A stretch of 39,129 bases of DNA from a phage, in sequence record PX309103.1, one strand, 5' to 3'. The notes beneath the pieces are model-generated. The model saw nothing but the letters and a program-made list of their open reading frames with translations. It was not told where the DNA came from and made no database searches. This document shows, one piece after another, positions 1 to 39,129 of the stretch. The translations under genes and the position numbers were made by a program. Positions within the stretch are counted from its first letter, which is position 1. Each line of letters begins with the position of its first letter.

Positions 1-180
1 TCTCACAGTTCAAGAACCTCAAGTCTCCCCATAGGCCCTCTTTAAGTCCAGACCAAAGGCCCTACCCCCAGTCTATCATAAGGTTGGACCGATGGTCAAG
101 ACTTCAGGTCGACGATAGGTCTAGGCTATGGCTGGAGGTTAGACGATAGGTAGGGGCTATAGGTCTGTCTCTGTGTCTCT
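1..180. repeat. Left direct terminal repeat (180 bp), identical to 38950-39129
   Basis: Read directly: bases 1-180 are identical to the last 180 bases of the window; T7-like genomes carry such terminal redundancy. Confidence 0.95.
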
Positions 181-216
181 ATCTGTATAGTGTTATAGTA
201 TAACATTACGTCCACA

Positions 217-306
217 CCTACAGTCTCACTACCTACAGTCATTGACTCCTGCTGTACCTACAGCCTCAACCATAAGACACCAACGCCTACAGTCAGAGAC
301 CTACAG
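217..306. repeat. Array of 5 CCTACAG heptamers just inside the left terminal repeat
   Basis: CCTACAG at 217, 232, 257, 286 and 300; resembles the short repeat arrays flanking T7 terminal repeats. Confidence 0.7.
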
Positions 307-556
307 TTAATAGACACACAGCTATAGACTTAAGGTCAAAGACATGTTAGTCAAAGACTATCCTCTTACACCATGAGGCCGACGATAGCTTAATCGATAT
401 TATTTAAATAACATATTGACTATAGGTCCAGACTATGGCCTAATAGCTTCCGTCAACACGACACGGCAACAACCGGATAGTGAAGACGCCGGGTCATCCC
501 GGTTAAGTAGACAGCCTGATAAGTCATACGAACAACAGGCAGATGACAGAAAGTAG

Positions 557-586
557 TTGACAAGATGTAACGATAAGATGTAAGCT
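557..586 (+). promoter_or_regulatory. Candidate host sigma70 early promoter (TTGACA-N18-TAAGCT)
   Basis: TTGACA at 557-562 and TAAGCT at 581-586; position matches T7 A-promoters. A second weaker candidate has TTGACT at 416-421 after an AT-rich stretch. Pattern match only. Confidence 0.3.
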
Positions 587-775
587 GTACCACATCGAAA
601 CAACGGTGATGACCAACACTGAAATGGTCTACCTGAAGTCCTCTGACTGAAGGGAATGCTCTTTAACAATCTGGATAAACTCTTAATGTGCGCCGATAGC
701 GACTAACTACAGGGTCTTTGAGTCTACATCTGAAGGCCCTGACTGATAGTCACTAACAACTGAGAGGATATAACT

Positions 776-1285
776 ATGGAACGTAACGCTAACGCATACT
801 ATGAGCTGCTGGCTGCAACCGTTGAGCTGTTCAATGAGCGTATTCAGTACGACGAAATAGCTGAAGGCGATGACTACAGCGATGCGCTGCATGAGGTCGT
901 AGACGGTCAGGTCCCGCACTATTACCACGAGATTTTCACGGTGATGGCTGCTGATGGCATAGACCACGAGTTTGAGGACTCTGGGCTGATGCCTGAGACC
1001 AAGAACGTAACGCGTATACTACAAGCTCGCATCTATGAGGCACTTTATAACGATGTGTCTAATAGCTCTGAGGTGGTCTGGTTTGAGGCTGAAGAGAGCG
1101 ACGAAGAGGATGAATATTGGGTAGTTGACACTAGAACAGGCGAGATAATTGAGCAAGCTGTATCACTTTACGAGGCTACTGCATGTGCAAAAGAACTCTA
1201 TGAGGAAGGTTTTCACATGCAGGTCGAAGACATCAACGATAACGTAGTGTTCGACCCTGCGGCTGCTGAGGAGGATTGCGAGTGA
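776..1285 (+). CDS. ocr: Ocr-like anti-restriction DNA-mimic protein (T7 gp0.3 family) with C-terminal extension
   Basis: 169 aa, very acidic; the segment VPHYYHEIFTVMAADGIDHEFEDSGLMPETKNVTRILQARIYEAL matches recalled T7 Ocr; GAGGA RBS; first gene after the early promoter region. Confidence 0.85.
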   Translation: MERNANAYYELLAATVELFNERIQYDEIAEGDDYSDALHEVVDGQVPHYYHEIFTVMAADGIDHEFEDSGLMPETKNVTRILQARIYEALYNDVSNSSEVVWFEAEESDEEDEYWVVDTRTGEIIEQAVSLYEATACAKELYEEGFHMQVEDINDNVVFDPAAAEEDCE

Positions 1286-1442
1286 TAGTAACTTATGGTC
1301 TCTGCCAGCACCACGTCACCATAAGCCGGGCGTTGGTCAAAACCGGGCAGTTAAACCACGAGGAGGCCATGCGTCTCTTGAAAGTGGTCTACAGGAGACG
1401 CAAGCGCATGCACGATAGTTTACACACTGAGGACAAGTAAAC

Positions 1443-1574
1443 ATGTATCAGATAACTTATAGCAGTGAACAGGCATTCTACGAGGGGTGCTACGAGCTGA
1501 TGAAGCGTGGGGCTTGCTGGTGGGCTGACTGTAAGCAAGATGACCACTGTATCGGTGGAAGTGTAACCGTGTAA
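1443..1574 (+). CDS. Small Cys-rich early protein (43 aa), hypothetical
   Basis: ORF MYQITYSSEQAFYEGCYELMKRGACWWADCKQDDHCIGGSVTV with GAGGA upstream; below the ORF-track size cutoff. Confidence 0.4.
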   Translation: MYQITYSSEQAFYEGCYELMKRGACWWADCKQDDHCIGGSVTV

Positions 1575-1655
1575 GGCCTAGCTGAGTGATAGACGAGAGG
1601 TCATCGACTGATAGGTGGCCTCAAAGATTACCACTTAAATTGATAGGAGTTAACT

Positions 1656-1823
1656 ATGAAATTTACAGGCATAGCACTTTACGTAACGATTATTATGGCG
1701 TGGCTGACTGCGGTATTCACTGATGGGAACGCATTACGACTAGGCTGGATGGCAGTGGATATTATCTTCTCTCCGGTAGGGGTCGTGCGGGGCATCTTGA
1801 TGTGGTTTGGATTGGCGGGATAA
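1656..1823 (+). CDS. Small hydrophobic early protein (55 aa), hypothetical
   Basis: ORF MKFTGIALYVTIIMAWLTAVFTDGNALRLGWMAVDIIFSPVGVVRGILMWFGLAG with TAGGAG RBS; predicted transmembrane character. Confidence 0.45.
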   Translation: MKFTGIALYVTIIMAWLTAVFTDGNALRLGWMAVDIIFSPVGVVRGILMWFGLAG

Positions 1824-2441: not shown

Positions 2442-2464
2442 ACTTAACTATCACTATAGGACTC
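2442..2464 (+). promoter_or_regulatory. Phage RNAP promoter upstream of gene 1 (TTAACTATCACTATAGGACT)
   Basis: Matches the in-genome consensus TAAACTATCACTATAGG found 11 times. Confidence 0.7.
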
Positions 2465-2533: not shown

Positions 2534-5215
2534 ATGAGCGTCATCTCTATTGACAAACACGACTTCTCTGATGTGTCAAACGCCATTGAGCCGTTTAACC
2601 TGCTGGCTGACCACTACGGGCAAGACCTTGCAGTCAAACAGCTTCAGCTTGAGCATGAGGCATACACTGAAGGCGAGCGACGTTTCATCAAAAACCTTGA
2701 GCGACAGACTGAGCGCGGGGAACTGGCAGACAATCAGGTCGCCAAGCCTTTGATGCAGACTCTGGTCCCTAAGATTGCGCAAGCAGTCAAGGAGTGGCAC
2801 GAAGGTCCAGACGGGAAGCTGTCAACCTCTCGTCCTAGCGTAGCGTTCACCATGTTGAGCACTGAAGAGAAGGCCGTCAAGGACCGCTCTATGCGCATCT
2901 CCTGTGAGTCCGCTGCGGTTATCATACTGAAGGTAATACTCTCCAAGCTGGTCAAGCCCGAAGGGATACCGATTACACCTATGGCCTCCGCGATAGGTCG
3001 CACACTTGAGGACGAAATCCGCTTCGGTCGCATCCGTGACAAAGAGAAAGAGCACTTCAAGAAGGCGATAGCTGATAACCTGAATAAGCGTGCCGGGGCA
3101 TCCTACAAGAAAGCCTACATGCAAGCGGTAGAGGCATCCATGCTGGAGCAAGGCCAACTGGAAGATGCGTGGGGGACTTGGAGTCCTACAGAGGCTGTCC
3201 ACGTTGGCATTAAGATGCTCGAGATTGTCATCCAGTCAACACAACTTGTCGAGCTTAAGCGTTACGGTGCTGGCAATGCAGCGACTGACGTAGAGATGGT
3301 CCACCTGTCAGACTTCTGGGTCAAGAAGATGGCACAACGAGGATTCAGCCTTGCGGGTATCGCTCCTGTCTACCAGCCTTGCGTCGTTCCACCAAAGCCG
3401 TGGACTGGTGTCGTAGGCGGTGGGTATTGGGCCAAAGGTCGAAGACCATTGCCACTGATTCGCTTAGGGTCTAAGTCTGCGGTAGCACGTTACGAAGACG
3501 TGTACATGCCTGAAGTCTATGACGCTGTGAATATCATCCAGAATACACCTTGGAAAGTGAACAAGAAGGTATTGGACGTGGTGAACATGGTCGAGAAGCT
3601 GAACAACACGCCTATTGATGACATCCCTCAGATGGAGCCGCTGAAGCCTGAGGACTATGCTGGTGAGACCGAAGAAGAACTCAAGGCATGGAAGAAGGCT
3701 GCTGCTGGTATCTACCGCCGAGAGAAGGCCCGGCAGTCACGTAGATTGTCACTGAGCTTTATCGTTAACCAAGCGAACAAGTTCTCTCAGTTCAAGGCCA
3801 TCTGGTTTCCGTACAACATGGACTGGCGCGGTCGCGTCTACGCTGTGCCGATGTTCAACCCTCAAGGCAACGACATGCAGAAGGGTCTCCTGACTCTGGC
3901 AGTCGGCAAGCCTATTGGTGCTGACGGTTTCAAATGGCTGAAGGTCCACGGTGCAAACTGCGCGGGTGTCGATAAAGTCACCTTCGAGGAGCGCATCAAG
4001 TGGGTGGAAGACAACCACGAAAACATCATGGCTGCTGCTAAGGCACCGATGGATAGTATTGAGTGGTGGGGCAAGTTAGACTCTCCGTTCTGTTTCCTCG
4101 CGTTCTGCTTCGAGTATGCTGGCGTAATGCACCACGGCCTGTCTTACTCCTGCTCGCTGCCGATAGCGTTCGATGGGTCCTGCTCTGGTATTCAGCACTT
4201 CAGTGCGATGCTTCGTGACCACATCGGTGGACATGCAGTAAACCTGACGCCATCCGGTATGGTACAAGACATCTACCGCATTGTGTCTGACCGCATTGAG
4301 GAGGAGCTTAAAGTCCTGCTGATTAACGGTACTGACAACGAGATGGTCACTCACGAGGACAAGAAAACTGGTGAGATTACCGAACGTATCAAGCTGGGGA
4401 CACGAGAGCTGGCCCGTCAGTGGCTGACCTACGGGATGTCACGTAAGGTCACTAAGCGTTCAGTCATGACTCTGGCATACGGGTCGAAAGAGTACGGCTT
4501 CGCAGACCAAGTTTACGAGGACATCGTGATGCCAGCGATTGACTCAGGGTCTGGCGCTATGTTCACCGAGCCGAGCCAAGCGTCTCGCTTCATGGCTAAG
4601 ATGATTTGGGAAGCTGTGAGTGTGACTGTAGTTGCTGCGGTTGACGCGATGAAGTGGCTTCAAGGTGCTGCCAAGCTGCTGGCTGCTGAGGTGAAGGACA
4701 AGAAGACTGGAGAAATCCTGAAGCCTTGCCTTCCGGTACACTGGGTAACACCTGATGGTTTCCCGGTCTGGCAGGAATACCGCAAGAAGGATACCACTCG
4801 TCTGAACCTGATGTTCTTAGGGTCATTCAACCTTCAGCCTACCGTCAACAGAGGTACGAAGAAAGAGCTGGACAAACACAAGCAGGAGTCAGGAATTAGC
4901 CCGAACTTCGTCCACTCACAAGATGGTAGCCACCTCCGCAAGACTGTAGTCCACACGCACCGCAAGTATGGCGTGATGTCATTCGCAGTGATTCACGATA
5001 GCTTCGGGACCATCCCGGCTGACGCTGAGTATCTGTTCCGTGGCGTCCGTGAGACGATGGTCGAGACCTACCGCGACAACGATGTGCTGCTTGACTTCTA
5101 CGAGCAGTTTGAATACCAGCTTCATGAGAGCCAGCGCGACAAGTTACCTGAGCTACCGAAGAAAGGTAAACTGAATATCGAGGACATCTTGTCTTCAGAC
5201 TTTGCATTCGCTTAA
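2534..5215 (+). CDS. Single-subunit DNA-dependent RNA polymerase (T7 gp1 family)
   Basis: 893 aa; motifs DGSCSGIQHFSAM, HDSFGT and C-terminal ...DFAFA match T7 RNAP. Confidence 0.97.
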   Translation: MSVISIDKHDFSDVSNAIEPFNLLADHYGQDLAVKQLQLEHEAYTEGERRFIKNLERQTERGELADNQVAKPLMQTLVPKIAQAVKEWHEGPDGKLSTSRPSVAFTMLSTEEKAVKDRSMRISCESAAVIILKVILSKLVKPEGIPITPMASAIGRTLEDEIRFGRIRDKEKEHFKKAIADNLNKRAGASYKKAYMQAVEASMLEQGQLEDAWGTWSPTEAVHVGIKMLEIVIQSTQLVELKRYGAGNAATDVEMVHLSDFWVKKMAQRGFSLAGIAPVYQPCVVPPKPWTGVVGGGYWAKGRRPLPLIRLGSKSAVARYEDVYMPEVYDAVNIIQNTPWKVNKKVLDVVNMVEKLNNTPIDDIPQMEPLKPEDYAGETEEELKAWKKAAAGIYRREKARQSRRLSLSFIVNQANKFSQFKAIWFPYNMDWRGRVYAVPMFNPQGNDMQKGLLTLAVGKPIGADGFKWLKVHGANCAGVDKVTFEERIKWVEDNHENIMAAAKAPMDSIEWWGKLDSPFCFLAFCFEYAGVMHHGLSYSCSLPIAFDGSCSGIQHFSAMLRDHIGGHAVNLTPSGMVQDIYRIVSDRIEEELKVLLINGTDNEMVTHEDKKTGEITERIKLGTRELARQWLTYGMSRKVTKRSVMTLAYGSKEYGFADQVYEDIVMPAIDSGSGAMFTEPSQASRFMAKMIWEAVSVTVVAAVDAMKWLQGAAKLLAAEVKDKKTGEILKPCLPVHWVTPDGFPVWQEYRKKDTTRLNLMFLGSFNLQPTVNRGTKKELDKHKQESGISPNFVHSQDGSHLRKTVVHTHRKYGVMSFAVIHDSFGTIPADAEYLFRGVRETMVETYRDNDVLLDFYEQFEYQLHESQRDKLPELPKKGKLNIEDILSSDFAFA

Positions 5216-5516: not shown

Positions 5517-5541
5517 ACCCTAAACTATCACTATAGGATTA
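5517..5541 (+). promoter_or_regulatory. Phage RNAP promoter (phi1.1-like)
   Basis: TAAACTATCACTATAGGATT. Confidence 0.8.
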
Positions 5542-5546
5542 GACTC

Positions 5547-5573
5547 AAGGTCATGACTCAAAGTCGTGGCCTT
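5547..5573 (+). promoter_or_regulatory. Conserved hairpin, RNase III-site-like (R1.1 position)
   Basis: AAGGUCAUGAC / GUCGUGGCCUU 11-bp stem with G-U pairs and UCAAA loop; one of 3 copies of the same element. Confidence 0.6.
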
Positions 5574-5611
5574 CATGATTAACCCTAACTCATTCAATCA
5601 GGAGCTACACC

Positions 5612-5795: not shown

Positions 5796-6059
5796 ATGGG
5801 CCGACTTTATAGTGGCAACCTAAACGCTTTCAAAGCAGCGTGTAACAGGCTCTATCAGTTAGACTTCGCTGTCATATCTCAGGAGTTTCAAGACCTTACG
5901 TCACGCCAAGAGTGTATGAGACTCAGGGTAGAGGACCGGGCGGGTAACATATTCGCTCTTGAGTCCTTCGCACACTACGATGAAGACGTACTGTACAACA
6001 CTGCAACAGAATTCCTCAATGGTCTCGCTGACCAACTCGACACATGGAGCAAATCATAA
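5796..6059 (+). CDS. gp1.2-like protein (inhibitor of host dGTP triphosphohydrolase family)
   Basis: N-terminus MGRLYSGNLNAFKAA... matches recalled T7 gp1.2. Confidence 0.8.
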   Translation: MGRLYSGNLNAFKAACNRLYQLDFAVISQEFQDLTSRQECMRLRVEDRAGNIFALESFAHYDEDVLYNTATEFLNGLADQLDTWSKS

Positions 6060-7162
6060 TGACAACGACTATCAAAACTAACCCGCACCGCGCTGTAGAT
6101 TACTCTGAGTCTGGCGTTAAGAAAGCACTGGAAGCAGCCGGGTCTCTGGAAGCTGAAGTGAAGTACGATGGTGTGCGCCTGAATCTCCCGGTCTTCCCTA
6201 CTGGTGAGACTCAATGGTTGAGCCGTGAGTCTAAACCTCTCCCAGCGCTTCAGCATCTGAAGTCAGAACATGGTAGTCCTACCGAATTAACAAACTGTGG
6301 AGACTGGCGCTGGTTCCTGAAGCAAGCAGGACATGAGGTCTCTGGCCTAATGATTGATGGCGAGGTGATGGTCAAAGGCGTGGACTTCAACACGTCTTCC
6401 GGTCTTATCCGCACCATGTGGTCTGACCGCAAGAACTACAAGTGGAACATGAACCCTAAGGCAGATATGGAGACCAAGAAGTCTAACAAGGTTCCCTTCC
6501 AGATTAGCCCTGAGTCCCTACGAGTGGTCGTCTACGGGGTCATCGACCTTAACGTCATCAACGACCCAAAAGCCGAAGGTCCTATTCATAGCGTCACACG
6601 CCTGAAGGCCGAAGCTATCGTCCCTCTCCTCCAGAAATACTTCCCGGAAATCGACTGGGTTCTGTCTGAGTCACACACGGTCTATGACCTTGAGTCGCTC
6701 AGCTCCCTGTACGAAGAGAAGCGTCTGGAAGGACACGAGGGTCTGGTAGTCAAGGACCCGCTTGGTAAATACAAGCGTGGCAAGAAGTCTGGCATGTGGA
6801 AAATGAAGCCTGAGGAGACCATAGACGGGACAGTGTGTGGCCTCGTGTGGGGGACTCAGGGTAAGGCGAACGAAGGTAAGGTCATCGGCTTCGAGGTGCT
6901 ACTTGAGGACGGCATGGTGGTTAACACCTGTGGCCTGACTGAAGAACAGAAGGACGAATTCACAGCTAAAGTCGCTGAATCTAGTGGCTATACCTTGGCT
7001 GGTGGCCCTGTGGTTATTCAGGATGGGACCGAGAAGACCAACCCATACGAAGGCTGGCAGTGTGAAGTCCTCTTCATGGAGCGGTTCCCAGATGGCTCAC
7101 TTCGTCACCCTAGCTTCAAGTGCTGGCGTGGAACTGAAGACAATCCGACCATTAAGAGCTAA
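6059..7162 (+). CDS. ATP-dependent DNA ligase (T7 gp1.3 family)
   Basis: Adenylation motif KYDGVR (EVKYDGVRLNL); start placed at ATG 6059 (GGAG 9 nt upstream, TAATG overlap with previous stop) rather than the ORF-track start 6044. Confidence 0.9.
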   Translation: MTTTIKTNPHRAVDYSESGVKKALEAAGSLEAEVKYDGVRLNLPVFPTGETQWLSRESKPLPALQHLKSEHGSPTELTNCGDWRWFLKQAGHEVSGLMIDGEVMVKGVDFNTSSGLIRTMWSDRKNYKWNMNPKADMETKKSNKVPFQISPESLRVVVYGVIDLNVINDPKAEGPIHSVTRLKAEAIVPLLQKYFPEIDWVLSESHTVYDLESLSSLYEEKRLEGHEGLVVKDPLGKYKRGKKSGMWKMKPEETIDGTVCGLVWGTQGKANEGKVIGFEVLLEDGMVVNTCGLTEEQKDEFTAKVAESSGYTLAGGPVVIQDGTEKTNPYEGWQCEVLFMERFPDGSLRHPSFKCWRGTEDNPTIKS

Positions 7163-7171: not shown

Positions 7172-7210
7172 AACCCAGTGGTCTTAGGACTGCTGGGTTT
7201 CTTTGCTTTG
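7172..7210 (+). terminator. Intrinsic terminator after ligase (T7 TE-like)
   Basis: Stem CCCAGUGGUC/GACUGCUGGG with UUAG loop followed by UUUCUUUGCUUUG. Confidence 0.65.
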
Positions 7211-7245: not shown

Positions 7246-7270
7246 CCCTAAGCTATCACTATAGGACAAC
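7246..7270 (+). promoter_or_regulatory. Phage RNAP promoter
   Basis: TAAGCTATCACTATAGGACA. Confidence 0.75.
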
Positions 7271-7293: not shown

Positions 7294-7554
7294 ATGTCTA
7301 AGAACTTAATGTTCAACCGTTATACCGATACCTTCCACCTGTCCAACAACCCGTTCGCTTGCATTAAGCGCAACGAGAAGCTGGGCTACTTCGGGAAGGC
7401 CGTTAAGTTATCACCTACAGTATTCGCTCTGATTACTCCGAGCAAAGCGGAGGAGGCTCGCCAGAAGCGTGAGACCAACGTACCTGTGGTCTACACTAAG
7501 TGGCCTCGCGTTCGCCTGTTCGTTGAGTTCGTGAAGGAGGTATTCAATGACTAA
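7294..7554 (+). CDS. Hypothetical protein (86 aa), gp1.6-position
   Basis: ORF with AAGGAG RBS directly downstream of a phage promoter. Confidence 0.55.
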   Translation: MSKNLMFNRYTDTFHLSNNPFACIKRNEKLGYFGKAVKLSPTVFALITPSKAEEARQKRETNVPVVYTKWPRVRLFVEFVKEVFND

Positions 7555-7858
7555 GCATGCTCCCGGCTGTACGATATGGAACGGGGCTGAAGTATGTAGC
7601 TGTAGCAACCCGCCTAATACAGACGATGGTGTACGCAAGCCGTCCCACTATCAGGTCTTTGACGGTGTGGAATCCATTGAGATTATCGCCCGGTCCATGA
7701 CTGTCAGTGAGTTCCGTGGTTTCTGCATGGGTAACGTCCTGAAGTATCGACTCCGGGCTGGTAAGAAGTCCGAGCTGGCTACTATGGAGAAGGACCTGAA
7801 CAAAGCCGCCTTCTATCAGGAGCTGTTCGACCAACATAAAGGTAAGTGTCATGCTTAA
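7547..7858 (+). CDS. DUF3310-like protein (possibly related to gp1.7 C-terminal region)
   Basis: Motif ...GNVLKYRLRAGKK...DLNKAAFY resembles the DUF3310 signature from memory; GGAGG RBS. Confidence 0.5.
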   Translation: MTKHAPGCTIWNGAEVCSCSNPPNTDDGVRKPSHYQVFDGVESIEIIARSMTVSEFRGFCMGNVLKYRLRAGKKSELATMEKDLNKAAFYQELFDQHKGKCHA

Positions 7859-7955
7859 TGATATTCTGTACTTCGGATTAATCTGTGCAGGAGTAGGTGC
7901 ATTATTGCGTTTAATGTATTGGGCGATAGAGGCGGAATATGGTAAAACCAAGTGA
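7851..7955 (+). CDS. Small hydrophobic protein (34 aa), hypothetical
   Basis: ORF MLNDILYFGLICAGVGALLRLMYWAIEAEYGKTK; start overlaps previous gene end. Confidence 0.3.
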   Translation: MLNDILYFGLICAGVGALLRLMYWAIEAEYGKTK

Positions 7956-8033
7956 GTGGTGCCGGGAGATGTATGAGAAGACTCTCAACCCGGACTACAT
8001 CACGTTATACAACCAATGGAAGGAGCGCGGTTT

Positions 8034-8192
8034 ATGACTGACGTAGAGAAGAAGTACATCGTGGAGCTTGAGGGTCACATTCAGTCCTTCGAGGTTCCGG
8101 TGTACGCAAAGTCTCTTGAAGAGGCTACCCTGAAGTCCCAAGAGTATGAGGACGCTGGGTTTGTGGTCGGACGGATTCGTCCTGAGACCTAA
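8034..8192 (+). CDS. Gp2-like inhibitor of host RNA polymerase (52 aa)
   Basis: [17 protein letters not shown]...[10 protein letters not shown] matches recalled T7 Gp2. Confidence 0.8.
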
Positions 8193-8210
8193 ACTATCAC
8201 TGTAGGACAG
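8188..8210 (+). promoter_or_regulatory. Phage RNAP promoter variant (phi2.5-like)
   Basis: TAAACTATCACTGTAGGACA; one mismatch in the TATA core. Confidence 0.55.
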
Positions 8211-10319: not shown

Positions 10320-10343
10320 TAAACTCTAAAGGAGAATAACTCA

Positions 10344-10559
10344 ATGATTAAACTTATTGAATTTCTTGGTCGTCTGGTGGTGCGTGGTTATCGTCGTGCT
10401 GCGGTACTGGAACGAAAGGTAGAAAAGAAGACTGCTGACAGTGCGGCTGATGCTGCTGCTCTGGCTGACAAGCTAACAATAGCGTCACTGGAAGCTGGCA
10501 TGAAGGCACGTCAAGCTGACACCAAAGCTGACCAGTTGGCTCAGTTCTTCAAAGCCTAA
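10344..10559 (+). CDS. Hypothetical Ala-rich protein (71 aa)
   Basis: ORF with strong RBS AAAGGAGA. Confidence 0.5.
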   Translation: MIKLIEFLGRLVVRGYRRAAVLERKVEKKTADSAADAAALADKLTIASLEAGMKARQADTKADQLAQFFKA

Positions 10560-10577
10560 ACTATCACCTTAGGGATG
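10555..10577 (+). promoter_or_regulatory. Phage RNAP promoter variant upstream of gene 4
   Basis: TAAACTATCACCTTAGGGAT; two mismatches to the consensus core. Confidence 0.45.
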
Positions 10578-10624: not shown

Positions 10625-12328
<1,704 letters not shown>

Positions 12329-12339
12329 GGAGGAGTACA

Positions 12340-12504: not shown

Positions 12505-12514
12505 GTCTAGACTC

Positions 12515-16951: not shown

Positions 16952-16965
16952 CTGTAGGAGGGACT

Positions 16966-31200: not shown

Positions 31201-32095
31201 GTTCGATGACCGCTGGCTTAAGACCGCTGGTATCTCTGACGAGCAGTGGAAGGGCATTAAGTCCCTCATCCGTGAGTCAGTGACTCGTGGTCCAGACGGG
31301 AAGTACACCATCAAGGATAAGAAGGCGTTCAGTCAGGACCCAAGGGCTATGGACCTGTGGCGTATGGGTGACACCATCGCTGATGAAACGTTACTCCGTC
31401 CTCATAAGCTGTCCAACATGGACGCCAAGGCTTATGGTCCTATCGCTAAGACTGTCCTTCAGTTTAAGAACTTCGTCATCAAGTCCATCAATGGGCGAAC
31501 CATGCGTACCTTCTATAACGCCACGAAGAACAACCGAGCGATGGACGCTGCCCTGTCCACTGTGATGTCTATGGGTCTTGCTGGTATCTACTACATGGCT
31601 CAGGTTCATATCAAGGCTTACGCTATGCAGGATGGTCGAGACCGTGACTACCTCAAGCAAGCTCTAGACCCGACGATGATTGGATATGCAGCTCTATCAC
31701 GTAGTTCACACCTTGGTGGACCACTTGGGGTAGCTAACATTCTAGGTGGCATCGCTGGATATGAGGACACTAAGATGCTCCGTTCGTCTATCCTACCTCG
31801 TTCGCCCACAGAGAAGCCTGAACGTGCCATCGCGTATGGTGCAGCTACAAGTGACCCTGTGATGAATGTTGTTGGTAACTTCTTGGAGCAGGTTCCAGCT
31901 TTCGGATATGCTGCTAACGTTGGTGCTTCGGCTTATAACTTGGCTGGCTACCTGAAGGCCGACACTCGTGTCAACGAGCGTGACTACATAACCGGGATGT
32001 ATAACACCTTCCGTGAACTGGTACCGAACGACCCGATTACTCAGAAGTTGTTACTGGGAACGTTTGAGGAGCAAGGTATCCACATCAAGGACTAA
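28208..32095 (+). CDS. Internal virion (core) protein D (gp16 family) with divergent N-terminal domain
   Basis: About 1295 aa; from about residue 200 onward similar to T7 gp16 (GAGVDPLTYVP, RLEARETARN, PHVYS); start ATG 28208 with AAGGAG RBS. Confidence 0.9.
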   Translation: MATRGIRNNNPGNIRVSKDQWEGMTGDDGAFVTFDSPESGVRALGKNLLSYGRQGYDSIEKIINRWAPPNENETKAYIDSVVAATGIPATQSLDLSNPDTLSALAQAISFHETGSRYNPEVYQKGVARALNGISPKTPPVSANVFDALTEGLKAKPKVALGENLPTAAGLNIEGQAPEAPNESFGEMFYKSTGETMQEREDRSTWFGFGSATEAEVKNSMVGVAIRAGQTEDSLDVIGDVFNPTRWNNHKWSREELDQIRNAGVLPQYYGVITGGSPQNLTELINLALENQKLDQEKAKAGTGAQLAAGVIGAGVDPLTYVPIAGQIGKGGKLVNKMFTVAAQSGALAGVSEAARTSVAGGDAHVAEAILGGALFGGGMTAIADGLGRALGRNTNEFAGPATRLEARETARNVDGQDLSRLPIQEGEPTFSHQGVKFADVPNEPGSVRLEDGSILIGENPLNPKTRKVFDEVIEPERAAAGVNLGGLTEIGLKLLRSENPEIRGVAADLVRSPTGMQSGASGKIGTTASDVFERLRAVDHRFYNDIDDAVTEALKDPYFQTAFWRDSGAFRQDIYQRVSMAIEDGSGILKAELTPGELKVYDLLKNQFDAKREMMENPAMFGRPDAQSIFPGSRFKGTYVPHVYSKQMKELYTKELGSPEALQEAIKKSWLTSYASRPEVKKRVDEALLESDPTLTPEGLAAAVDKYANDKAYGISHTEQFERSSVMEENINGLVGLENNSFLEARNLFDSDMSIVLPNGQTFSVNNLREWDMDKIVPAYNRRVNGDIAIMAGTGKTTKDMKDLVETMMNKAGDDGKLKGEVSTLRDTLKILTGRSRRDGADDAAFATVMRTMTDLSFFAKNAYMGVQNLTEIGGMLARGNVRAMLHGVPIFRDLAFRNKKVGASEIKDLHNVIFGKELDDSIRPSKQDVIDRLRSYSDLGRGTATALGTAKYYTGELAVRSPFTKVLNGTTNYLLDAGRQGFLSDIVEHSLTGSKRKFDDRWLKTAGISDEQWKGIKSLIRESVTRGPDGKYTIKDKKAFSQDPRAMDLWRMGDTIADETLLRPHKLSNMDAKAYGPIAKTVLQFKNFVIKSINGRTMRTFYNATKNNRAMDAALSTVMSMGLAGIYYMAQVHIKAYAMQDGRDRDYLKQALDPTMIGYAALSRSSHLGGPLGVANILGGIAGYEDTKMLRSSILPRSPTEKPERAIAYGAATSDPVMNVVGNFLEQVPAFGYAANVGASAYNLAGYLKADTRVNERDYITGMYNTFRELVPNDPITQKLLLGTFEEQGIHIKD

Positions 32096-32114
32096 ACTAT
32101 CACTATAGGAAACT
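32092..32114 (+). promoter_or_regulatory. Phage RNAP promoter (phi17-like)
   Basis: TAAACTATCACTATAGGAAAC. Confidence 0.85.
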
Positions 32115-32159: not shown

Positions 32160-35100
32160 ATGTCCACGATTACACAATTCCCTTCAGGAAACACTCAGTA
32201 CAGGATTGAGTTCGACTACCTAGCCAGAACGTTTGTTGTTGTTACGCTGGTGAATAGCTCTAACCCTACCCTGAACCGTGTACTGGAAGTTGGTCGAGAT
32301 TACCGATTCCTTAATCCAACGATGATTGAGATGTTGGTTGACCAATCAGGTTTCGACATCGTTCGTATTCACCGTCAGACTGGAACTGACTTAGTGGTAG
32401 ACTTCAGGAATGGCTCAGTGTTGACAGCTAGTGACCTGACCAATTCAGAGCTTCAGGCTATCCATATTGCAGAAGAAGGTCGAGACCAAACGGTTGACTT
32501 AGCGAAGGAATATGCCGATGCTGCTAGTAGCTCTGCTGGCAACGCTAAGGATAGCGAGGACGAAGCACGACGAATCGCTGAGAGTATCAGGGAAGCTGGT
32601 CTAATTGGCTATATTACCCGTCGCTCCTTCGAGAAAGGCTACAACGTTACAACATGGAGCGAGGTCCTGCTATGGGAAGAGGATGGTGATTATTACCGCT
32701 GGGATGGTACGCTTCCAAAGAACGTTCCTGCTGGTTCAACTCCTGAAACTTCCGGTGGGATTGGATTAGGTGCGTGGGTTAGTGTTGGTGATGCTGCTTT
32801 AAGAAGTCAGATTTCAAACCCGGAAGGGGCAATACTCTACCCTGAATTACATAGAGCACGCTGGCTTGATGAAAAAGATGTCCGTGGTTGGGGTGCTAAA
32901 GGGGATGGTGTCACTGATGATACAGCAGCGTTAACGAGCGCATTAAACGACACACCGGTTGGACAAAGGCTTAATGGCAATGGGAAGACATATAAGGTCA
33001 CATCCCTGCCTGACATTAGTCGCTTCATCAACACTCGTTTCGTTTATGAGCGCATTCCCGGACAACCTCTTTATTATGTCTCTGAAGAATTTGTTCAGGG
33101 TGAGCTGTTCAAGATAACGGACACCCCTTATTACAATGCGTGGCCTCAGGATAAAGCGTTCGTATATGAGAATGTGATATATGCACCTTACATGGGTAGC
33201 GATCGTCATGGTGTTAGCCGTCTTCACGTATCATGGGTTAAGTCTGGTGATGATGGTCAAACATGGTCTACTCCAGAGTGGTTAACTGATCTGCATCCAG
33301 ATTACCCTACAGTGAACTATCATTGTATGAGTATGGGTGTATGTCGCAACCGTCTGTTTGCCATGATTGAAACACGTACTTTAGCCAAGAACGCATTAAC
33401 CAATTGTGCATTGTGGGATCGCCCCATGTCTCGTAGCCTGCATCTCACTGGTGGTATTACGAAGGCAGCAAATCAGCGATATGCAACAATCCATGTACCT
33501 GATCACGGGCTGTTCGTGGGTGACTTTGTTAACTTCTCTAACTCTGCGGTAACAGGTGTGTCAGGTGATATGAAGGTTGCAACGGTAATAGATAAGGACA
33601 GCTTCACGGTTCTTACACCTAACCAGCAGGACTCAGATTTGAATAACGCTGGAAAGAACTGGCATATGGGTACTTCATTCCATAAATCGCCATGGCGTAA
33701 GACAGATCTTGGCTTAATTCCTCGTGTGACTGAAGTTCATAGCTTTTCTGCTATTGATAACAATGGCTTTGTTATGGGTTATCACCAAGGTGATGTAGCT
33801 CCACGCGAAGTTGGACTATTCTACTTCCCTAACGCTTTCGATAATCCGGCTAACTATGTTCGTCGTCAGATACCTTCAGAGTATGAGCCAGATGCCTCAG
33901 AACCCTGCATCAAGTATTACGATGGTGTATTGTACCTCATCACCCGTGGCACTAGGAGCGATAGACTAGGTAGCTCTTTGCATCGTAGTAGAGACATAGG
34001 TCAGACTTGGGAGTCACTGAGATTTCCACATAATGTTCATCATACTACATTGCCTTTTGCTAAAGTAGGGGATGACCTTATTATGTTTGGTTCAGAACGT
34101 GCAGAAAATGAATGGGAAGCAGGTGCACCAGATGATCGTTACAAGGCATCTTATCCTCGCACCTTCTATGCACGCTTGAATGTAAACAATTGGAATGCAG
34201 ATGGTATTGAATGGGTTAACATCACTGACCAGATTTATCAGGGCGGAATAGTTAACTCAGGTGTAGGTGTTGGTTCGGTAGTTGTGAAGGATAGTTACAT
34301 CTACTACATGTTTGGTGGAGAGGACCATTTTAACCCATGGACATATGGAGATAACTCAGCGAGGGATCCATTCAAATCAGACGGTCATCCCTCAGATTTG
34401 TATTGCTACAAAATGAAGATTGGCCCAGACAATCGTGTTTCAAGGGATTTCAGGTATGGTGCTGTACCTAACAGAGCTGTTCCCGTGTTTTTTGATACGA
34501 ATGGGATTCGCACTGTTCCTGCGCCAATGGAATTTACAGGGGATTTGGGTTTAGGTCATGTGACCATTAGAGCCAGCACCAGTAGTAACATTCGCTCTGA
34601 AGTTTTAATGGAAGGTGAATATGGGTTTATCGGAAAATCTATACCGACTGATAACCCGGCAGGGCAGCGCATCATGTTTTGCGGGGGTGAAGGCACCAGT
34701 GCAACGACTGGCGCACAGATTACGCTTTATGGTGCAAATAACACCGACTCAAGGCGAATAGTTTACAACGGAGATGAGCATCTATTTCAGAGTGCTGATG
34801 TTAAGCCTTATAACGATAACGTCACTGCGCTTGGTGGGCCTAGAAACCGTTTCACCACTGCATACCTCGGAAGTAACCCTATTGTTACTTCTAACGGGGA
34901 GAGGAAAACAGAGCCGGTAGTTTTTGATGATGCTTTCCTTGATGCCTGGAGTGACGTTCACTACATCATGTACCAGTGGTTAGATGCTGTTCAACTGAAA
35001 GGCAATGATGCTCGTATTCACTTCGGGGTTATTGCTCAGCAAATTCGTGATGTATTCATTGCACATGGGCTGATGGACGAAAACAGTACGAATTGTCGTT

Positions 35101-35354
35101 ATGCTGTTCTGTGCTATGACAAGTATCCACGGATGACCGATACGGTATTTTCGCACAATGAAATCATTGAACACACTGACGAGGAGGGTAATGTCACCAC
35201 TACGGAAGAACCTGTATACACCGAGGTGGTTATTCACGAAGAGGGTGAGGAGTGGGGTGTTCGGCCTGACGGAATTTTCTTTGCTGAAGCCGCTTATCAG
35301 AGAAGAAAACTGGAAAGAATCGAAGCCAGACTTTCTGCTCTTGAACAGAAGTAA
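32160..35354 (+). CDS. Tailspike endosialidase (endo-N-acetylneuraminidase) with gp17-like N-terminal adaptor and C-terminal intramolecular chaperone domain
   Basis: 1064 aa; N-terminus FDYLARTFVVVTL resembles T7 gp17 N-domain; central region with GDGVTDDT; C-terminal domain typical of auto-cleaving chaperone domains; recalled resemblance to phage K1F endoNF. Confidence 0.9.
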   Translation: MSTITQFPSGNTQYRIEFDYLARTFVVVTLVNSSNPTLNRVLEVGRDYRFLNPTMIEMLVDQSGFDIVRIHRQTGTDLVVDFRNGSVLTASDLTNSELQAIHIAEEGRDQTVDLAKEYADAASSSAGNAKDSEDEARRIAESIREAGLIGYITRRSFEKGYNVTTWSEVLLWEEDGDYYRWDGTLPKNVPAGSTPETSGGIGLGAWVSVGDAALRSQISNPEGAILYPELHRARWLDEKDVRGWGAKGDGVTDDTAALTSALNDTPVGQRLNGNGKTYKVTSLPDISRFINTRFVYERIPGQPLYYVSEEFVQGELFKITDTPYYNAWPQDKAFVYENVIYAPYMGSDRHGVSRLHVSWVKSGDDGQTWSTPEWLTDLHPDYPTVNYHCMSMGVCRNRLFAMIETRTLAKNALTNCALWDRPMSRSLHLTGGITKAANQRYATIHVPDHGLFVGDFVNFSNSAVTGVSGDMKVATVIDKDSFTVLTPNQQDSDLNNAGKNWHMGTSFHKSPWRKTDLGLIPRVTEVHSFSAIDNNGFVMGYHQGDVAPREVGLFYFPNAFDNPANYVRRQIPSEYEPDASEPCIKYYDGVLYLITRGTRSDRLGSSLHRSRDIGQTWESLRFPHNVHHTTLPFAKVGDDLIMFGSERAENEWEAGAPDDRYKASYPRTFYARLNVNNWNADGIEWVNITDQIYQGGIVNSGVGVGSVVVKDSYIYYMFGGEDHFNPWTYGDNSARDPFKSDGHPSDLYCYKMKIGPDNRVSRDFRYGAVPNRAVPVFFDTNGIRTVPAPMEFTGDLGLGHVTIRASTSSNIRSEVLMEGEYGFIGKSIPTDNPAGQRIMFCGGEGTSATTGAQITLYGANNTDSRRIVYNGDEHLFQSADVKPYNDNVTALGGPRNRFTTAYLGSNPIVTSNGERKTEPVVFDDAFLDAWSDVHYIMYQWLDAVQLKGNDARIHFGVIAQQIRDVFIAHGLMDENSTNCRYAVLCYDKYPRMTDTVFSHNEIIEHTDEEGNVTTTEEPVYTEVVIHEEGEEWGVRPDGIFFAEAAYQRRKLERIEARLSALEQK

Positions 35355-35684: not shown

Positions 35685-35944
35685 CGCAGATGGACTTAGA
35701 GAAGTTCCTCTTGATGCTTGATACTGAGCGTGCTCGACTTATGCTGCAAGACTTGCGGGATGACACTAAGCGTTCACCTCAGCTCTATAACGCCATTGAG
35801 AAGCTGCTTGCTCGTCACAACTTTGTGTTAAGTAAGGTGTCTATGGACGAGAAGACGCTGGCTGATATGGAGGCCCTGAACGCAGAGTACGATAAGGTGC
35901 TTTCAGCGACTGAGGATAATGACACAGGGTATGGTGTTCAATAA
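35681..35944 (+). CDS. Terminase small subunit / DNA maturation protein A (gp18 family)
   Basis: RSPQLYNAIEKLLARH matches T7 gp18. Confidence 0.88.
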   Translation: MTQMDLEKFLLMLDTERARLMLQDLRDDTKRSPQLYNAIEKLLARHNFVLSKVSMDEKTLADMEALNAEYDKVLSATEDNDTGYGVQ

Positions 35945-35955
35945 GTGTTAGACTC

Positions 35956-35982
35956 AAGGTCATTACTATATGTAGTGGCCTT
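35956..35982 (+). promoter_or_regulatory. Conserved hairpin, RNase III-site-like (R18.5 position)
   Basis: AAGGUCAUUAC / GUAGUGGCCUU stem with UAUAU loop; third copy of the conserved element. Confidence 0.6.
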
Positions 35983-36045
35983 TATGGTTAACACTAACTA
36001 GTGGAGGCGACTCTACGTGAAATCTGATAAACCGGGAGGGCAACT

Positions 36046-36495
36046 ATGCTCGAATTTTTAAAGAGAGCGGCTCCGTGGTTACTTGCAGCAGTGATGTTTG
36101 CTGGTGGCTACCACACCGCTAACAATAAGTGGGAGGCTAAGGTCAATGCAGAATACACCTCGAATCTTAAGGCATCGGAGGATACAAGGCTTGCTGTCCA
36201 AGCTGAAGTCAACAAAGTGTCCAAACGGTTCCAAGACGAAATGTCCTCGCTGGAAGGCAGCACTGATAGGATTATTGCTGACCTTCAGTCTGACAATAAG
36301 CGGCTGCTCATCCGAGTCAAACCTACGAGTGGAACCACGCAAAATGACGGTCGATGCTTCATTGATGGCTACGCCGAACTTGACGAACGAGATGCTAAAC
36401 GTCTTATCGCCATCGGAGTGAAAGGAGACAAGTGGATTAAGGCCCTTCAAGACACTGTGAGAGCCTTACAGCAAGAGAAGGAGGTGACGCATTGA
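36046..36495 (+). CDS. i-spanin (Rz-like, gp18.5 family)
   Basis: 149 aa; N-terminal TM segment; [21 protein letters not shown] and [10 protein letters not shown] match T7 gp18.5. Confidence 0.88.
36146..36421 (+). CDS. o-spanin (Rz1-like lipoprotein, gp18.7 family), embedded in the +1 frame of the i-spanin gene
   Basis: Signal peptide plus lipobox ([19 protein letters not shown]); GGGAGG RBS 9 nt upstream of ATG 36146; exact start uncertain. Confidence 0.65.
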   Translation: MQNTPRILRHRRIQGLLSKLKSTKCPNGSKTKCPRWKAALIGLLLTFSLTISGCSSESNLRVEPRKMTVDASLMATPNLTNEMLNVLSPSE

Positions 36496-38255
36496 GTAAA
36501 GACTTAGTGGCGCGTCAGGCGCTAATGACTGCCCGTATGAAGGCAGACTTCGTGTTCTTCCTGTTCGTCCTGTGGAAAGCTCTGTCACTCCCGGTCCCGA
36601 CTCGATGTCAGATTGACATGGCGAAGAAACTATCGGCTGGGGACAACAGGCGTTTCATCCTACAGGCGTTCCGTGGTATCGGGAAGTCCTTCATTACGTG
36701 TGCATTCGTGGTCTGGAAACTATGGAATAACCCAGACTTGAAGTTCATGATTGTGTCGGCCTCAAAGGAACGAGCCGATGCGAACTCCATCTTCATCAAG
36801 CGAATCATCGACCTCATGCCTCAGCTTCAGGAACTCAAACCTAAGCAGGGTCAGCGAGATGCGGTTATCAGCTTCGACGTTGGACCAGCCAAGCCAGACC
36901 ACTCACCTTCGGTTAAGTCCGTTGGTATCACTGGTCAGTTGACTGGTAGTCGTGCTGACCTCCTGATTGCCGATGACGTGGAGGTTCCAAACAACTCAGC
37001 GACTCAGGCTGCACGAGACCGTCTGTCAGAGCTTGTAAAAGAGTTCGACGCTATCCTGAAGCCGGGAGGTACAATCATCTATCTGGGTACTCCTCAGAAC
37101 GAGATGACCTTGTATCGTGAGCTGGAAGGCCGTGGATACACCACTACCATCTGGCCCGCTCGCTACCCACGCGATAAGAAGGACTGGCAGTCTTACGGCG
37201 ACCGTCTGGCACCGATGCTTCAGGCAGAGCTTGAAGAGGACCCTGAGTCCTTCTACTGGCGTCCGACCGATGAAGTACGATTCGATGATACGGACCTGAA
37301 GGAACGTGAGCTGTCCTATGGTAAAGCTGGCTTCGCTCTACAGTTCATGCTTAACCCTAACCTGAGTGATGCTGAGAAGTACCCTCTGAAGCTCCGTGAC
37401 CTTATCGTAGCCGACTTGGACCCAGCGTCTAGCCCAATGGTATACCAATGGCTTCCTAACCCTCAGAACAAGCGTGAGGACGTTCCTAACGTTGGACTCA
37501 TGGGTGACTCATACCACACGTATCAGACTGTAGGTTCTGCCTTCAGTTCGTACACCCAGAAGATTCTAGTCATTGACCCTAGTGGTCGTGGTAAGGATGA
37601 AACTGGTTATGCGGTACTGTACCAGCTAAACGGCTACATCTTCGCTATGGAAGTTGGCGGTATGCGAGGTGGCTATGAAGACTCTACGCTGGAAGCCTTG
37701 GCTAAGATTGGTCGTAAGTGGAAGGTCAACGAATACGTCATTGAGGGTAACTTCGGTGATGGTATGTACCTTGAGCTATTCAAGCCTGTAGCTTCCCGTA
37801 TTCATCCTGCTGCTGTAACTGAAGTGAAGAGTAAGGGTCAGAAGGAACTCCGCATCTGTGACGTTCTGGAGCCTATCATGGGGTCTCACCGACTTATCGT
37901 TAACGCTGCTGCTATCGTCCAAGATTACCAGTCTGCCTCTGATAAGGATGGTGTTCGTAACCCTATCTACTCTCTCTTCTACCAGATGACACGTATCTCT
38001 CGTGAACGTGGAGCATTGGCACACGATGACCGACTTGATGCGCTGGCTATCGGTGTACAGTTCTTCGTTGAGTCTATGGCGAAGGATGCCAACAAAGGCG
38101 AACGTGAAGTCACTGAGGAGTGGCTGGAAGAACAGATGGAGAACCCACGGAAAGGATTCGAGTCCATCCACACGGAGTTCTGGGACAATGGGGTCCGGGT
38201 AACTCACAATACGGACGACGAGCTAGGACTAGGGTCATACGTTACGTTTCACTAG
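36492..38255 (+). CDS. Terminase large subunit / DNA maturation protein B (gp19 family), TTG start
   Basis: 587 aa; very strong T7 gp19 similarity ([62 protein letters not shown]); the only in-frame start is TTG with AAGGAGG 8 nt upstream. Confidence 0.95.
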
Positions 38256-38350
38256 CTGAATGAATAACTATAGGCGAAAACTGAATTAATAAGCAGTTAG
38301 TAACCTATAGTTACTACCAGTCTAACCTACTGTTTTATAAGGGGTTTGGA

Positions 38351-38373
38351 CTTAACTATCACTATAGGGAAGA
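38351..38373 (+). promoter_or_regulatory. Phage RNAP promoter near right end (phiOR-like)
   Basis: TTAACTATCACTATAGGGAAG. Confidence 0.85.
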
Positions 38374-38551
38374 CCCCCGGTTACTTATAGTATTACTGTA
38401 GTGAATATACATATGCAGACTTTATGCAAGACCTTAGGAGGCAGACTCCGAGTTCTTACCTAAGGCTTGCACCGATGGACGGAGGGTGATATTAATCATA
38501 ATCCCTCCAATACAGATAGTAAAGACCATAGATACAGGAGGTATGTAGCAT

Positions 38552-38710
38552 ATGGCAAAGACCAAAGCTGTACTTAAAGCTCTGGCGACCAATCGAGCTA
38601 CATACAGGTTTCTTGCTTCTGTTCTACTTGCTGCTGGCGTTACTGCTGGAAGTCAGTGGGTCGGGTGGGTCGAGACTCTCGTATGTTCTCTGGTGTCTCA
38701 GTGTAATTAA
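38552..38710 (+). CDS. gp19.5-position small membrane protein (52 aa)
   Basis: ORF MAKTKAVLKALATNRATYRFLASVLLAAGV... with AGGAGG RBS. Confidence 0.55.
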   Translation: MAKTKAVLKALATNRATYRFLASVLLAAGVTAGSQWVGWVETLVCSLVSQCN

Positions 38711-38743
38711 CGCAATCATGGTAACGATTCATGAGAGGAAGAC

Positions 38744-38786
38744 CTAAGGTCAGTACGTGGATAAAGACTCACTGTACTGACCTTAG
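38744..38786 (+). promoter_or_regulatory. Perfect 13-bp inverted repeat hairpin downstream of gene 19.5
   Basis: CTAAGGTCAGTAC (38744-38756), 17-nt loop, GTACTGACCTTAG (38774-38786); shares the AAGGUCA 5' arm with the other hairpins. Confidence 0.6.
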
Positions 38787-38871
38787 CTACTGTAGTCAAG
38801 GACTTTAGGTAACACCTTAATAGAAGCTCACTTAGGGTCATCCTACTTATTGGTCCATCCTAGTGTCGCCT

Positions 38872-38910
38872 GACCTACGGTCCTTGACCTACAGTGGCTG
38901 TGACCTACAG
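38872..38910. repeat. Array of 3 GACCTAC(A/G)G repeats just inside the right terminal repeat
   Basis: Copies at 38872, 38886 and 38902; counterpart of the left-end CCTACAG array. Confidence 0.6.
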
Positions 38911-38949
38911 TAGTGACGATGAGTTTTGGACCAAAAGTTTGAGACCACA

Positions 38950-39129
38950 TCTCACAGTTCAAGAACCTCAAGTCTCCCCATAGGCCCTCTTTAAGTCCAG
39001 ACCAAAGGCCCTACCCCCAGTCTATCATAAGGTTGGACCGATGGTCAAGACTTCAGGTCGACGATAGGTCTAGGCTATGGCTGGAGGTTAGACGATAGGT
39101 AGGGGCTATAGGTCTGTCTCTGTGTCTCT
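38950..39129. repeat. Right direct terminal repeat (180 bp), identical to 1-180
   Basis: Read directly from sequence. Confidence 0.95.

Follow-up and report, generated by a model that had tools for sequence, protein, structure and literature searches.

The 39,129-bp sequence PX309103.1 as a very likely complete genome of a virulent K1F-like podophage with 180-bp direct terminal repeats

The phage sequence record PX309103.1 comprises 39,129 bp, all of which was analysed and is hereafter called the window. It begins and ends with a direct terminal repeat (DTR), the left copy lying at 1..180 and the right copy at 38950..39129, both on the plus strand. In total, 48 genes were placed, all on the plus strand and colinear with those of phages K1F and T7, and 90.7% of the window is coding. 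With high confidence the window can be regarded as one whole unit-length genome of a virulent Kayfunavirus podophage, extending from the physical left end to the right end and bearing the 180-bp DTR at both.

The first-pass annotation had reported positions 1-180 and 38950-39129 to be identical, and this was reproduced: there are no mismatches between the two copies, 180 nt is the longest exact prefix of the window that is also its suffix, and an independent repeat search of the window found no long direct repeat other than this pair (family D2). A chance origin of a 180-nt exact match in 39 kb is excluded. The left DTR is 92% identical to that of K1F, and the right one follows TTTGAGACCACA, an arrangement found unchanged in K1F and Mt1B1_P3, with the 30 bases 5′ of the right-hand copy being identical across three K1F-group genomes. 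The boundaries were compared in four genomes with two repeat copies (the window, Mt1B1_P3, T7 and K1F), in all of which the repeat starts with TCTCACAG. It is 180 bp long in the window and 202 bp long in Mt1B1_P3, ending in both cases with TCTCT followed by ATCTGT, and 160 bp long in T7, ending with CCCT followed by ATCTGT; in the K1F record it has 178 bp and ends one base earlier. At least six related records start at the same position as the window does. The 180-bp length lies within the 165-202 bp span reported or seen for this group, including 165 bp for phage F, in a paper that describes this clade as having short DTRs (PMC5582158), and 179 bp as published for K1F together with 183-190 bp determined for K1F-group repeats by primer run-off (PMC4925675).

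Just inside the left DTR there are five CCTACAG heptamers (217..306, plus strand; at 217, 232, 257, 286 and 300), and just before the right DTR there are three TGACCTAC(A/G)G repeats (38871..38910, plus strand) with CCTACAG at 38888 and 38904; the plus strand of the whole window has only 15 copies of this heptamer. We take these arrays to be the counterparts of SRL (left) and SRR (right) of T7, which reportedly has its own heptamer arrays in this arrangement.

Since the two repeat boundaries match T7 and Mt1B1_P3 base for base, and K1F with a shift of at most 1 nt, the sequence argues for a true terminal redundancy with real virion ends rather than an assembler overlap. The competing explanation is that the identical ends are an artefact of assembly or curation, either a circular-looking contig cut with an overlap or ends pasted by analogy, the real ends being located elsewhere or the repeat having another length. 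It draws on the shotgun assemblies of relatives, which are permuted with a single repeat copy, as in the Logan contigs SRR9897379_510 and SRR9897390_8158 and in the BUCT788 record, where the only TCTCACAG site is at 30254, and on phiYIO1-1 having been deposited as circular, so that records with two copies require a curation step; the window, moreover, comes as sequence alone. However, an arbitrary overlap would fall on each of these base-exact boundaries with a chance of about 1 in 39,000, 180 is an unusual k-mer overlap for an assembler, the run-off lengths for the K1F group stand against the artefact as well, and, should the ends have been placed by analogy, the conserved boundary motifs would still point to positions 1/180 as the expected sites of cutting. 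In SRR9897379_510 (38,292 nt, 96-98% identical to the window) gene 19, a single repeat copy and gene 0.3 follow one another with no host DNA, which is the collapsed form expected of an assembler given a terminally redundant linear genome. An artefact is therefore considered quite improbable, and genuine virion ends are assumed below.

The gene products were named independently by Pfam and PHROGs. With tblastn and the annotation coordinates of AM084414, 51 of the 54 K1F products were matched in the same order on the plus strand, mostly at 92-100% identity, leaving gp0.2, gp1.75 and the homing endonuclease of the DNA polymerase gene with no match in the window. Matches to T7 proteins (36/56, colinear, plus strand, 31-77% identity by tblastn) include all core replication, virion, lysis and packaging genes, and the 20 T7 genes having no homolog in the window are non-essential, among them the 0.7 kinase, 5.9 and the HNH genes 3.8, 5.3 and 7.7. 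The earlier description of a full T7-type set in canonical order on one strand is thus accurate for the order, the strand and the essential core, but not for these 20 genes, nor for the receptor-binding part of gp17, which is replaced by an endosialidase. GC (guanine-cytosine) skew stays positive throughout the 13 bins of 3 kb, in keeping with a single coding strand.

A megablast search of 50,697 phage records with both halves of the window matched hundreds of T7-family podophages, the top matches being the K1F-group Escherichia phages phiYIO1-1, pO2, Mt1B1_P3, K1F, vB_EcoP_PR_Kaz2018 and BUCT788 (93-97% identity over 81-100% of the query); no record gave a 100%/100% match. An exact search of IMG/VR viral contigs with the 49-nt junction of the left DTR and the unique sequence gave 0 matches, so this exact genome is not there. 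Exact-protein look-ups gave matches for three sequences only, those of the RNA polymerase, gp5.5 and gp1.7, all in Logan assemblies, and the contigs carrying them belong to relatives with different genomes of about 38-39 kb and no host flanks. Three Logan contigs, SRR22034878_20099, SRR9897379_510 and SRR9897390_8158, represent near-complete genomes of close relatives with 88-98% identity in most aligned blocks, and two of the three share the RNA polymerase protein and the endosialidase architecture of the window.

Genome similarity was measured against six fetched phage genomes (seven records) with our own VIRIDIC-style two-way approximation, the values of which may be off by 1-2 points: 93.5% for BUCT788 (PV540240), the nearest record, with 97.5% identity over the aligned DNA, 91.2% for Mt1B1_P3, 90.3% for both K1F and phiYIO1-1, 86.7% for pO2 and 27.4% for T7. 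The genus criterion of the International Committee on Taxonomy of Viruses is at least 70% nucleotide similarity over the genome, and the species line was set at 95% or more. K1F and Mt1B1_P3, both members of Kayfunavirus, lie well above 70%, and no measured genome reaches 95%, so the window possibly represents a new species that falls just under the line with every one of them.

Because the similarity to T7 is about 27% versus about 90% to K1F and 93.5% to BUCT788, the window is, by its nucleotide sequence, a K1F-like coliphage of the genus Kayfunavirus and not a member of Teseptimavirus, the genus of T7 proper. What speaks for Teseptimavirus is a shared plan: the gene order, the repeat-end motifs (the first 9 and last ~12 bases of the DTR) and the frameshift site GGTTTTC in gene 10. 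The slots of the terminators TE and Tphi and a phiOR-type promoter near the right end are also common to the window and T7. Nevertheless, the similarity is far under the 70% line, the promoter consensus differs and window-type promoters are absent from T7, and the T7 tail fibre gives way to an endosialidase, a capsule depolymerase, which leaves membership in that genus with virtually no probability. Accordingly, the label "T7-like" given in the first-pass annotation is right for the subfamily Studiervirinae and too wide for the genus. The features of this subfamily are present in the form of the phage's own single-subunit T7-type RNA polymerase (gene 1), a 39,129-bp linear plan with one-strand genes in T7 order (early, DNA metabolism, virion/lysis/packaging) and, as read from the sequence, short direct terminal repeats sharing their boundaries with T7, K1F and Mt1B1_P3. 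The family is now Autotranscriptaviridae (formerly Autographiviridae), in the order Autographivirales, and the genus has 71 child taxa with about 70 named species.

K1F (DQ111067 / AM084414) has the same genome plan, and most of its virion and replication proteins are 95-100% identical to those of the window. The differences are that gene 0.2, gene 1.75 and the insertion of the homing endonuclease occur in K1F but not in the window, that the window has two small genes (14739-14897 and 15384-15602) lacking in K1F, and that several alleles are divergent, namely the ligase (67% aa identity), gp1.7 (58%), gp5.5 (32%) and gp3.2 (77%). BUCT788 resembles the window in the ligase-gp1.7 block (99.9%), in the same 72-aa gene between 5.7 and 6 and in the endosialidase tailspike, but it is 1.3 kb longer, has three homing/HNH endonuclease genes and differs in the first 2 kb, where the early genes lie. 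Every base of the window is covered by alignments to fetched relatives (three metagenome contigs and seven phage records of the K1F group; T7 was left aside), and for 99.7% of the bases an identical one occurs in one or more of eight of these relatives. The genome is an ordinary mosaic of alleles known in the genus, with no unique DNA segment or unexplained feature; its biological weight is small, as the genus already numbers ~70 species, the genome follows the standard T7/K1F layout, and no new mechanism is needed to account for any part of the window.

With regard to lifestyle, no tRNA or tmRNA (transfer or transfer-messenger RNA) was found in the window by ARAGORN, no RNA family at the Rfam gathering thresholds, and no integrase, recombinase, repressor or partition family in 47 plus-strand products (all except the 32-aa gp1.8) and the three longest antisense open reading frames (ORFs). 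The combination marking a temperate phage, an integrase/recombinase or a partition system plus a repressor, is absent. The Pfam/PHROGs scans and ARAGORN thus agree with the first-pass annotation, which had seen no integrase, repressor or tRNA, and its proposal of a strictly lytic phage is supported by the missing lysogeny genes and by family membership, Kayfunavirus being described as obligately lytic in a 2026 paper (PMC13298934). That the window is a prophage, a chromosomal fragment or a temperate phage has a negligible probability: no point in favour of it was found, and against it stand the lack of any lysogeny gene, tRNA, att-like context or host gene, the complete alignment to relatives and the related contigs of 38-39 kb with no host flanks. 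The repeat, the conserved boundaries, the gene set and the absence of any base outside the relatives' alignments also uphold the earlier view of a single complete virion DNA unit free of host flanks.

Gene 17 (32160..35354, plus strand) codes for a 1064-aa endosialidase tailspike with a T7-type N-terminal adaptor and a C-terminal intramolecular chaperone, and its Pfam domains are Phage_T7_tail, End_N_terminal, End_beta_propel, End_beta_barrel, End_tail_spike and Peptidase_S74. The N-terminal extension, the beta-propeller with an inserted beta-barrel, the stalk and the Peptidase_S74 chaperone with its cleavage serine correspond to an endoNF-type tailspike. The protein is 97.2% identical to K1F gp17, differing at 30 of 1064 positions, with E581, R596, R647 and S911 unchanged; from the endoNF literature we take the first three to be the catalytic residues and S911 to be the chaperone cleavage serine. 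Residues 245-910 match PDB 1V0E/3GVL at E = 0 and residues 790-1064 match 3GW6, the solved structures of the K1F endosialidase and chaperone. Because the tailspike is 97% identical to the K1F endosialidase and the catalytic residues are kept, the host is very probably K1-encapsulated E. coli; gp17 would be expected to cleave alpha-2,8-polysialic acid and the phage to plate on K1-encapsulated hosts only.

A 19-nt motif, TAAACTATCACTATAGGGA, was found by pattern search in 11 copies with at most 3 mismatches, all on the plus strand and in intergenic slots, with 0 expected by chance. K1F, phiYIO1-1 and pO2 have the motif in the same 11 slots, and the conservation of the slots identifies the copies as promoters of the phage polymerase. 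They are located upstream of gene 1 (2444..2462, repeat family D1) and in the slots of phi1.1 (5521..5539), phi1.6 (7249..7267), phi2.5 (8190..8208), phi4 (10557..10575), phi6.5 (16597..16615, perfect consensus), phi9 (19424..19442), phi10 (20412..20430, perfect consensus), phi13 (24817..24835), phi17 (32093..32111) and phiOR (38352..38370), the latter lying about 580 bp before the right DTR, with T7 phiOR about 550 bp before its own. The first of them stands directly 5′ of the phage RNA polymerase gene, and T7 has no annotated phage promoter between phiOL (405) and phi1.1A (5848); such a promoter would allow positive feedback. The phi6.5 promoter, which lies in an intergenic stretch of 210 bp separating gene 6 from gene 6.5, is flanked by a 24-nt inverted repeat (16542-16565/16626-16649, 83% complementary), possibly an origin element or a target of RNase III in read-through transcripts.

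A candidate host sigma-70 early promoter, TTGACA-18-TAAGCT (557..586, plus strand), is proposed as a homolog of T7 A3, with window positions 556-604 aligning with the T7 A3 promoter region. A generic sigma-70 scan of the window gave no more sites than shuffled sequences, so this assignment is made by homology. The generic terminator scan likewise gave no more sites than shuffles, and TE and Tphi were retained on positional and homology grounds: the putative early terminator in the TE slot (7172..7199, plus strand) has a 12-bp stem with a T-run (−19.4 kcal/mol, z −4.1) and follows gene 1.3 as T7 TE does, and the putative late terminator in the Tphi slot (21711..21748, plus strand) has a 17-bp stem followed by UUUUUGCUU (−25.3 kcal/mol) and lies after gene 10 as in T7. 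Three RNase III-type hairpins on the plus strand, each with an internal loop, are mutually similar (repeat families D8/D10/D17): 5536..5585 in the R1.1 slot (−17.7 kcal/mol, z −3.4), 12504..12551 5′ of gene 5 in the R4.7 slot (−19.4 kcal/mol, z −3.9) and 35944..35995 in the R18.5 slot (−23.1 kcal/mol, z −3.8). Their positions are presumably those of the T7 RNase III sites R1.1, R4.7 and R18.5, and by analogy to T7 they would be cleaved by RNase III.

No sequence evidence in the window contradicts its being a complete genome. Several points nonetheless call for caution. The ends are known from the sequence, and the depositor could have oriented or trimmed the assembly by K1F analogy. No phiOL-type phage promoter was found in the left 2.4 kb of the window, unlike in T7, and no host-type early promoter other than the A3 homolog could be supported. 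Finally, the proposed K1 specificity is drawn from the 97% tailspike identity, no host being recorded with the sequence.

From the observed repeat, boundaries, gene set, promoter, terminator and hairpin sequences and kinship with K1F, and with every biochemical step modelled on T7 and K1F by homology, the following cycle is proposed for a complete genome of this kind. The endosialidase tailspike gp17 would bind and cut the polysialic-acid K1 capsule of E. coli, and the DNA would enter left end first. The host RNA polymerase would transcribe the early region from A-type promoters to the terminator after the ligase gene, yielding Ocr and the phage RNA polymerase, and the latter would transcribe the remainder from its 11 promoters; the transcripts would be processed at the RNase III-type hairpins, and a part of them would end at the Tphi-like terminator that follows the capsid gene. 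Replication by gp2.5, 4, 5, 6 and 1.3 would lead to head-to-tail concatemers in which neighbours share one repeat copy; the terminase gp18/gp19 would cut these at the conserved boundaries and the repeat would be duplicated, so appearing at both ends of every virion DNA, and the holin, amidase and spanins would lyse the cell.

The early region, like all the genes below on the plus strand, opens with gene 0.3 (776..1285) coding for a 169-aa Ocr DNA-mimic anti-restriction protein (Pfam ocr, 1.7e-31) with 96% aa identity to K1F gp0.3. The Pfam domain covers residues 7-99 only, leaving a C-terminal extension of ~70 aa that is absent from T7 Ocr (117 aa); K1F Ocr also has 169 aa. Genes 0.35 (1276-1440), 0.36 (1656-1823), 0.37 (1913-2110) and 0.38 (2110-2436; phrog_7066) are homologs of their K1F namesakes with 73-92% aa identity and no Pfam family, and the gp0.35 homolog has ATA at the expected ATG start, so that only an upstream TTG start remains. 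A homolog of K1F "gp0.1" at 344-553 (75% aa identity) was rejected as a gene, being interrupted by two stop codons in the window, which speaks against gp0.1 being a genuine gene. Gene 1 (2534..5215) encodes the 893-aa single-subunit RNA polymerase (Pfam RNA_pol, 6.8e-106, and RPOL_N; 98.9% identity to K1F, 63% to T7). It is followed by the K1F homologs 1.1 (5228-5443), 1.15 (5612-5791) and the dGTPase inhibitor 1.2 (5796-6059), with Pfam Phage_1_1/T7-like_gp12 found for the 1.1-1.2 block, and by gene 1.3 (6059..7162), coding for an ATP-dependent DNA ligase (Pfam DNA_ligase_A_M and DNA_ligase_C) with 99.9% nt identity to BUCT788 and only 67% aa identity to K1F. The next block (7294..8192; Pfam DUF3310 and RNA_pol_inhib, phrog_1777), with homologs in K1F and T7, includes genes 1.6 (7294-7554), a short form of 1.7 (7547-7858, DUF3310), 1.8 (7939-8037, 32 aa) and 2 (8034-8192), the latter for a host RNA polymerase inhibitor (RNA_pol_inhib). 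The 103-aa gp1.7 matches only residues 103-196 of the T7 nucleotide kinase, which carry DUF3310, its N-terminal half being missing.

DNA metabolism proteins include a single-stranded DNA-binding protein (gene 2.5, 8251-8949; Pfam SBB_T7), endonuclease I (gene 3, 8949-9401; Phage_endo_I), an amidase/lysozyme (gene 3.5, 9861-10319; Amidase_2) and a primase/helicase (gene 4, 10628-12328; Helic-prim_T7_N, Toprim_2 and DnaB_C). Genes 3.2 (9401-9871) and 3.7 (10344-10559) belong to the block 8251..10559 that includes phrog_16385, and genes 4.2 (12057-12356) and 4.3 (12307-12504), both overlapping gene 4, to the block 10628..12504 that includes DUF5480. Gene 5 (12568..14739) codes for an uninterrupted family A DNA polymerase of 723 aa (DNA_pol_A) counted from the ATG at 12568, with another in-frame ATG at 12541. 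Downstream, the block 14739..15602 carries phrog_20928, 1452, 1334 and 2251. It starts directly 3′ of the polymerase gene with gene 5.4x (14739-14897, phrog_20928), the 52-aa product of which (..WWCGHEES..SGQC..) matches phiYIO1-1 gp25 at every residue and has no counterpart in K1F, and continues with a gene for an H-NS inhibitor-like protein (5.5, 14897-15181), gene 5.7 (15178-15387), both found in PHROGs, and a 72-aa accessory gene (15384-15602). Gene 6 (15602..16468) encodes a 5′-3′ exonuclease (5_3_exonuc_N) with 98% identity to K1F.

The 72-aa gene falls in phrog_2251, with no function assigned, and occupies the slot of T7 gp5.9 between 5.7 and 6, where K1F has no gene and phiYIO1-1 and pO2 have an unrelated gene of ~150 aa. 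T7 gp5.9 is a RecBCD inhibitor. Homologs with over 80% identity were found in 27 records, mostly of coliphages and Enterobacter phages, and others with ~42% identity in Pseudomonas myophages, about 126 of them, of roughly 92 kb each. Single-sequence AlphaFold2 predicts a small all-beta protein with low confidence (mean predicted local distance difference test score, pLDDT, 61). A bolder proposal, which we consider unlikely, is that of a new Kayfunavirus species (at most ~93.5% similar to any checked genome), naturally free of homing endonucleases, in which the 72-aa all-beta protein could act in host takeover or against host defences, as a factor not yet described that has passed between very different groups of phages.

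No homing/HNH endonuclease gene is present in the window, and the "empty" sites are 14583/14584 (gene 5), 35945-36045, 36495 and 38256-38350. At the first, window positions 14583/14584 join K1F positions 14936/15535, so that the 600-bp homing-endonuclease insertion of K1F is absent from gene 5. K1F has one such gene, interrupting the DNA polymerase gene, and phiYIO1-1 and BUCT788 have three each, located in or after gene 5, around 18.5 or after 19. The window is among the most compact genomes of the K1F group. A compact, endonuclease-free, lytic phage with defined ends and the proposed K1-capsule specificity would be of modest practical use, in engineering or as a therapeutic phage, where the target is K1 E. 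coli, which includes strains from neonatal meningitis and urinary tract infection.

The virion gene module begins with genes 6.5 (16679-16951; T7-like_Y65), 6.7 (16966-17190; T7-like_gp67), 7 (17195-17599) and 7.3 (17592-17846), with VirionAssem_T7 and phrog_2746 also found in the block 16679..17846, followed by genes for the portal, or head-tail connector (gene 8, 17858..19426; Head-tail_con, 4e-97), the scaffold (gene 9, 19524..20408; Phage_T7_Capsid) and the major capsid protein (gene 10A, 20534..21577; Gp10A-like, 8e-106). A T7-type −1 slippery site GGTTTTC (21556-21562) lies six codons 5′ of the 10A stop and opens a 50-codon −1 frame extension, a putative 10B by homology (21556..21708), the sequence of which (..EETLTP.Q.AARTRAAN..) is homologous in T7, K1F and phiYIO1-1; by analogy to T7, −1 frameshifting may take place in gene 10. 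The K1F and phiYIO1-1 records annotate 10A only, and the pO2 extension is different, with 96 codons. A 337-aa antisense ORF (20510-21523, minus strand) spans nearly all of the major capsid gene; it matches no Pfam family and probably results from codon usage rather than being a gene, and antisense ORFs of 156 and 155 aa, also with no Pfam family, were taken as spurious. Further downstream are genes for the tail tube (gene 11, 21867-22433; Tube), the nozzle (gene 12, 22433-24790; Phage_nozzle) and the internal virion/ejectosome proteins 13 (24867-25349; Phage_T7_Gp13), 14 (25322-25909; T7_gp14), 15 (25921-28203; phrog_1339) and 16 (28208-32095; phrog_342, with a transglycosylase domain).

Lysis and packaging proteins, encoded downstream of the tailspike gene, include a holin (gene 17.5, 35490-35684; Phage_holin_2_2), the small terminase (gene 18, 35681-35944; DNA_Packaging_2), an i-spanin (gene 18.5, 36046..36495; a weak Phage_lysis match) and an o-spanin whose gene is embedded in 18.5 (gene 18.7, 36146-36421; O_Spanin_T7, 2e-24). 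The large terminase gene (gene 19, 36492..38255; Terminase-T7_RNaseH-like and Terminase_6N) has a TTG start 3′ of AAGGAGG, with the product being 99% identical to K1F gp19. The last gene before the right DTR, 19.5 (38552..38710), encodes a 52-aa protein with 91% identity to K1F gp19.4 and a weak match to T7 gp19.5.

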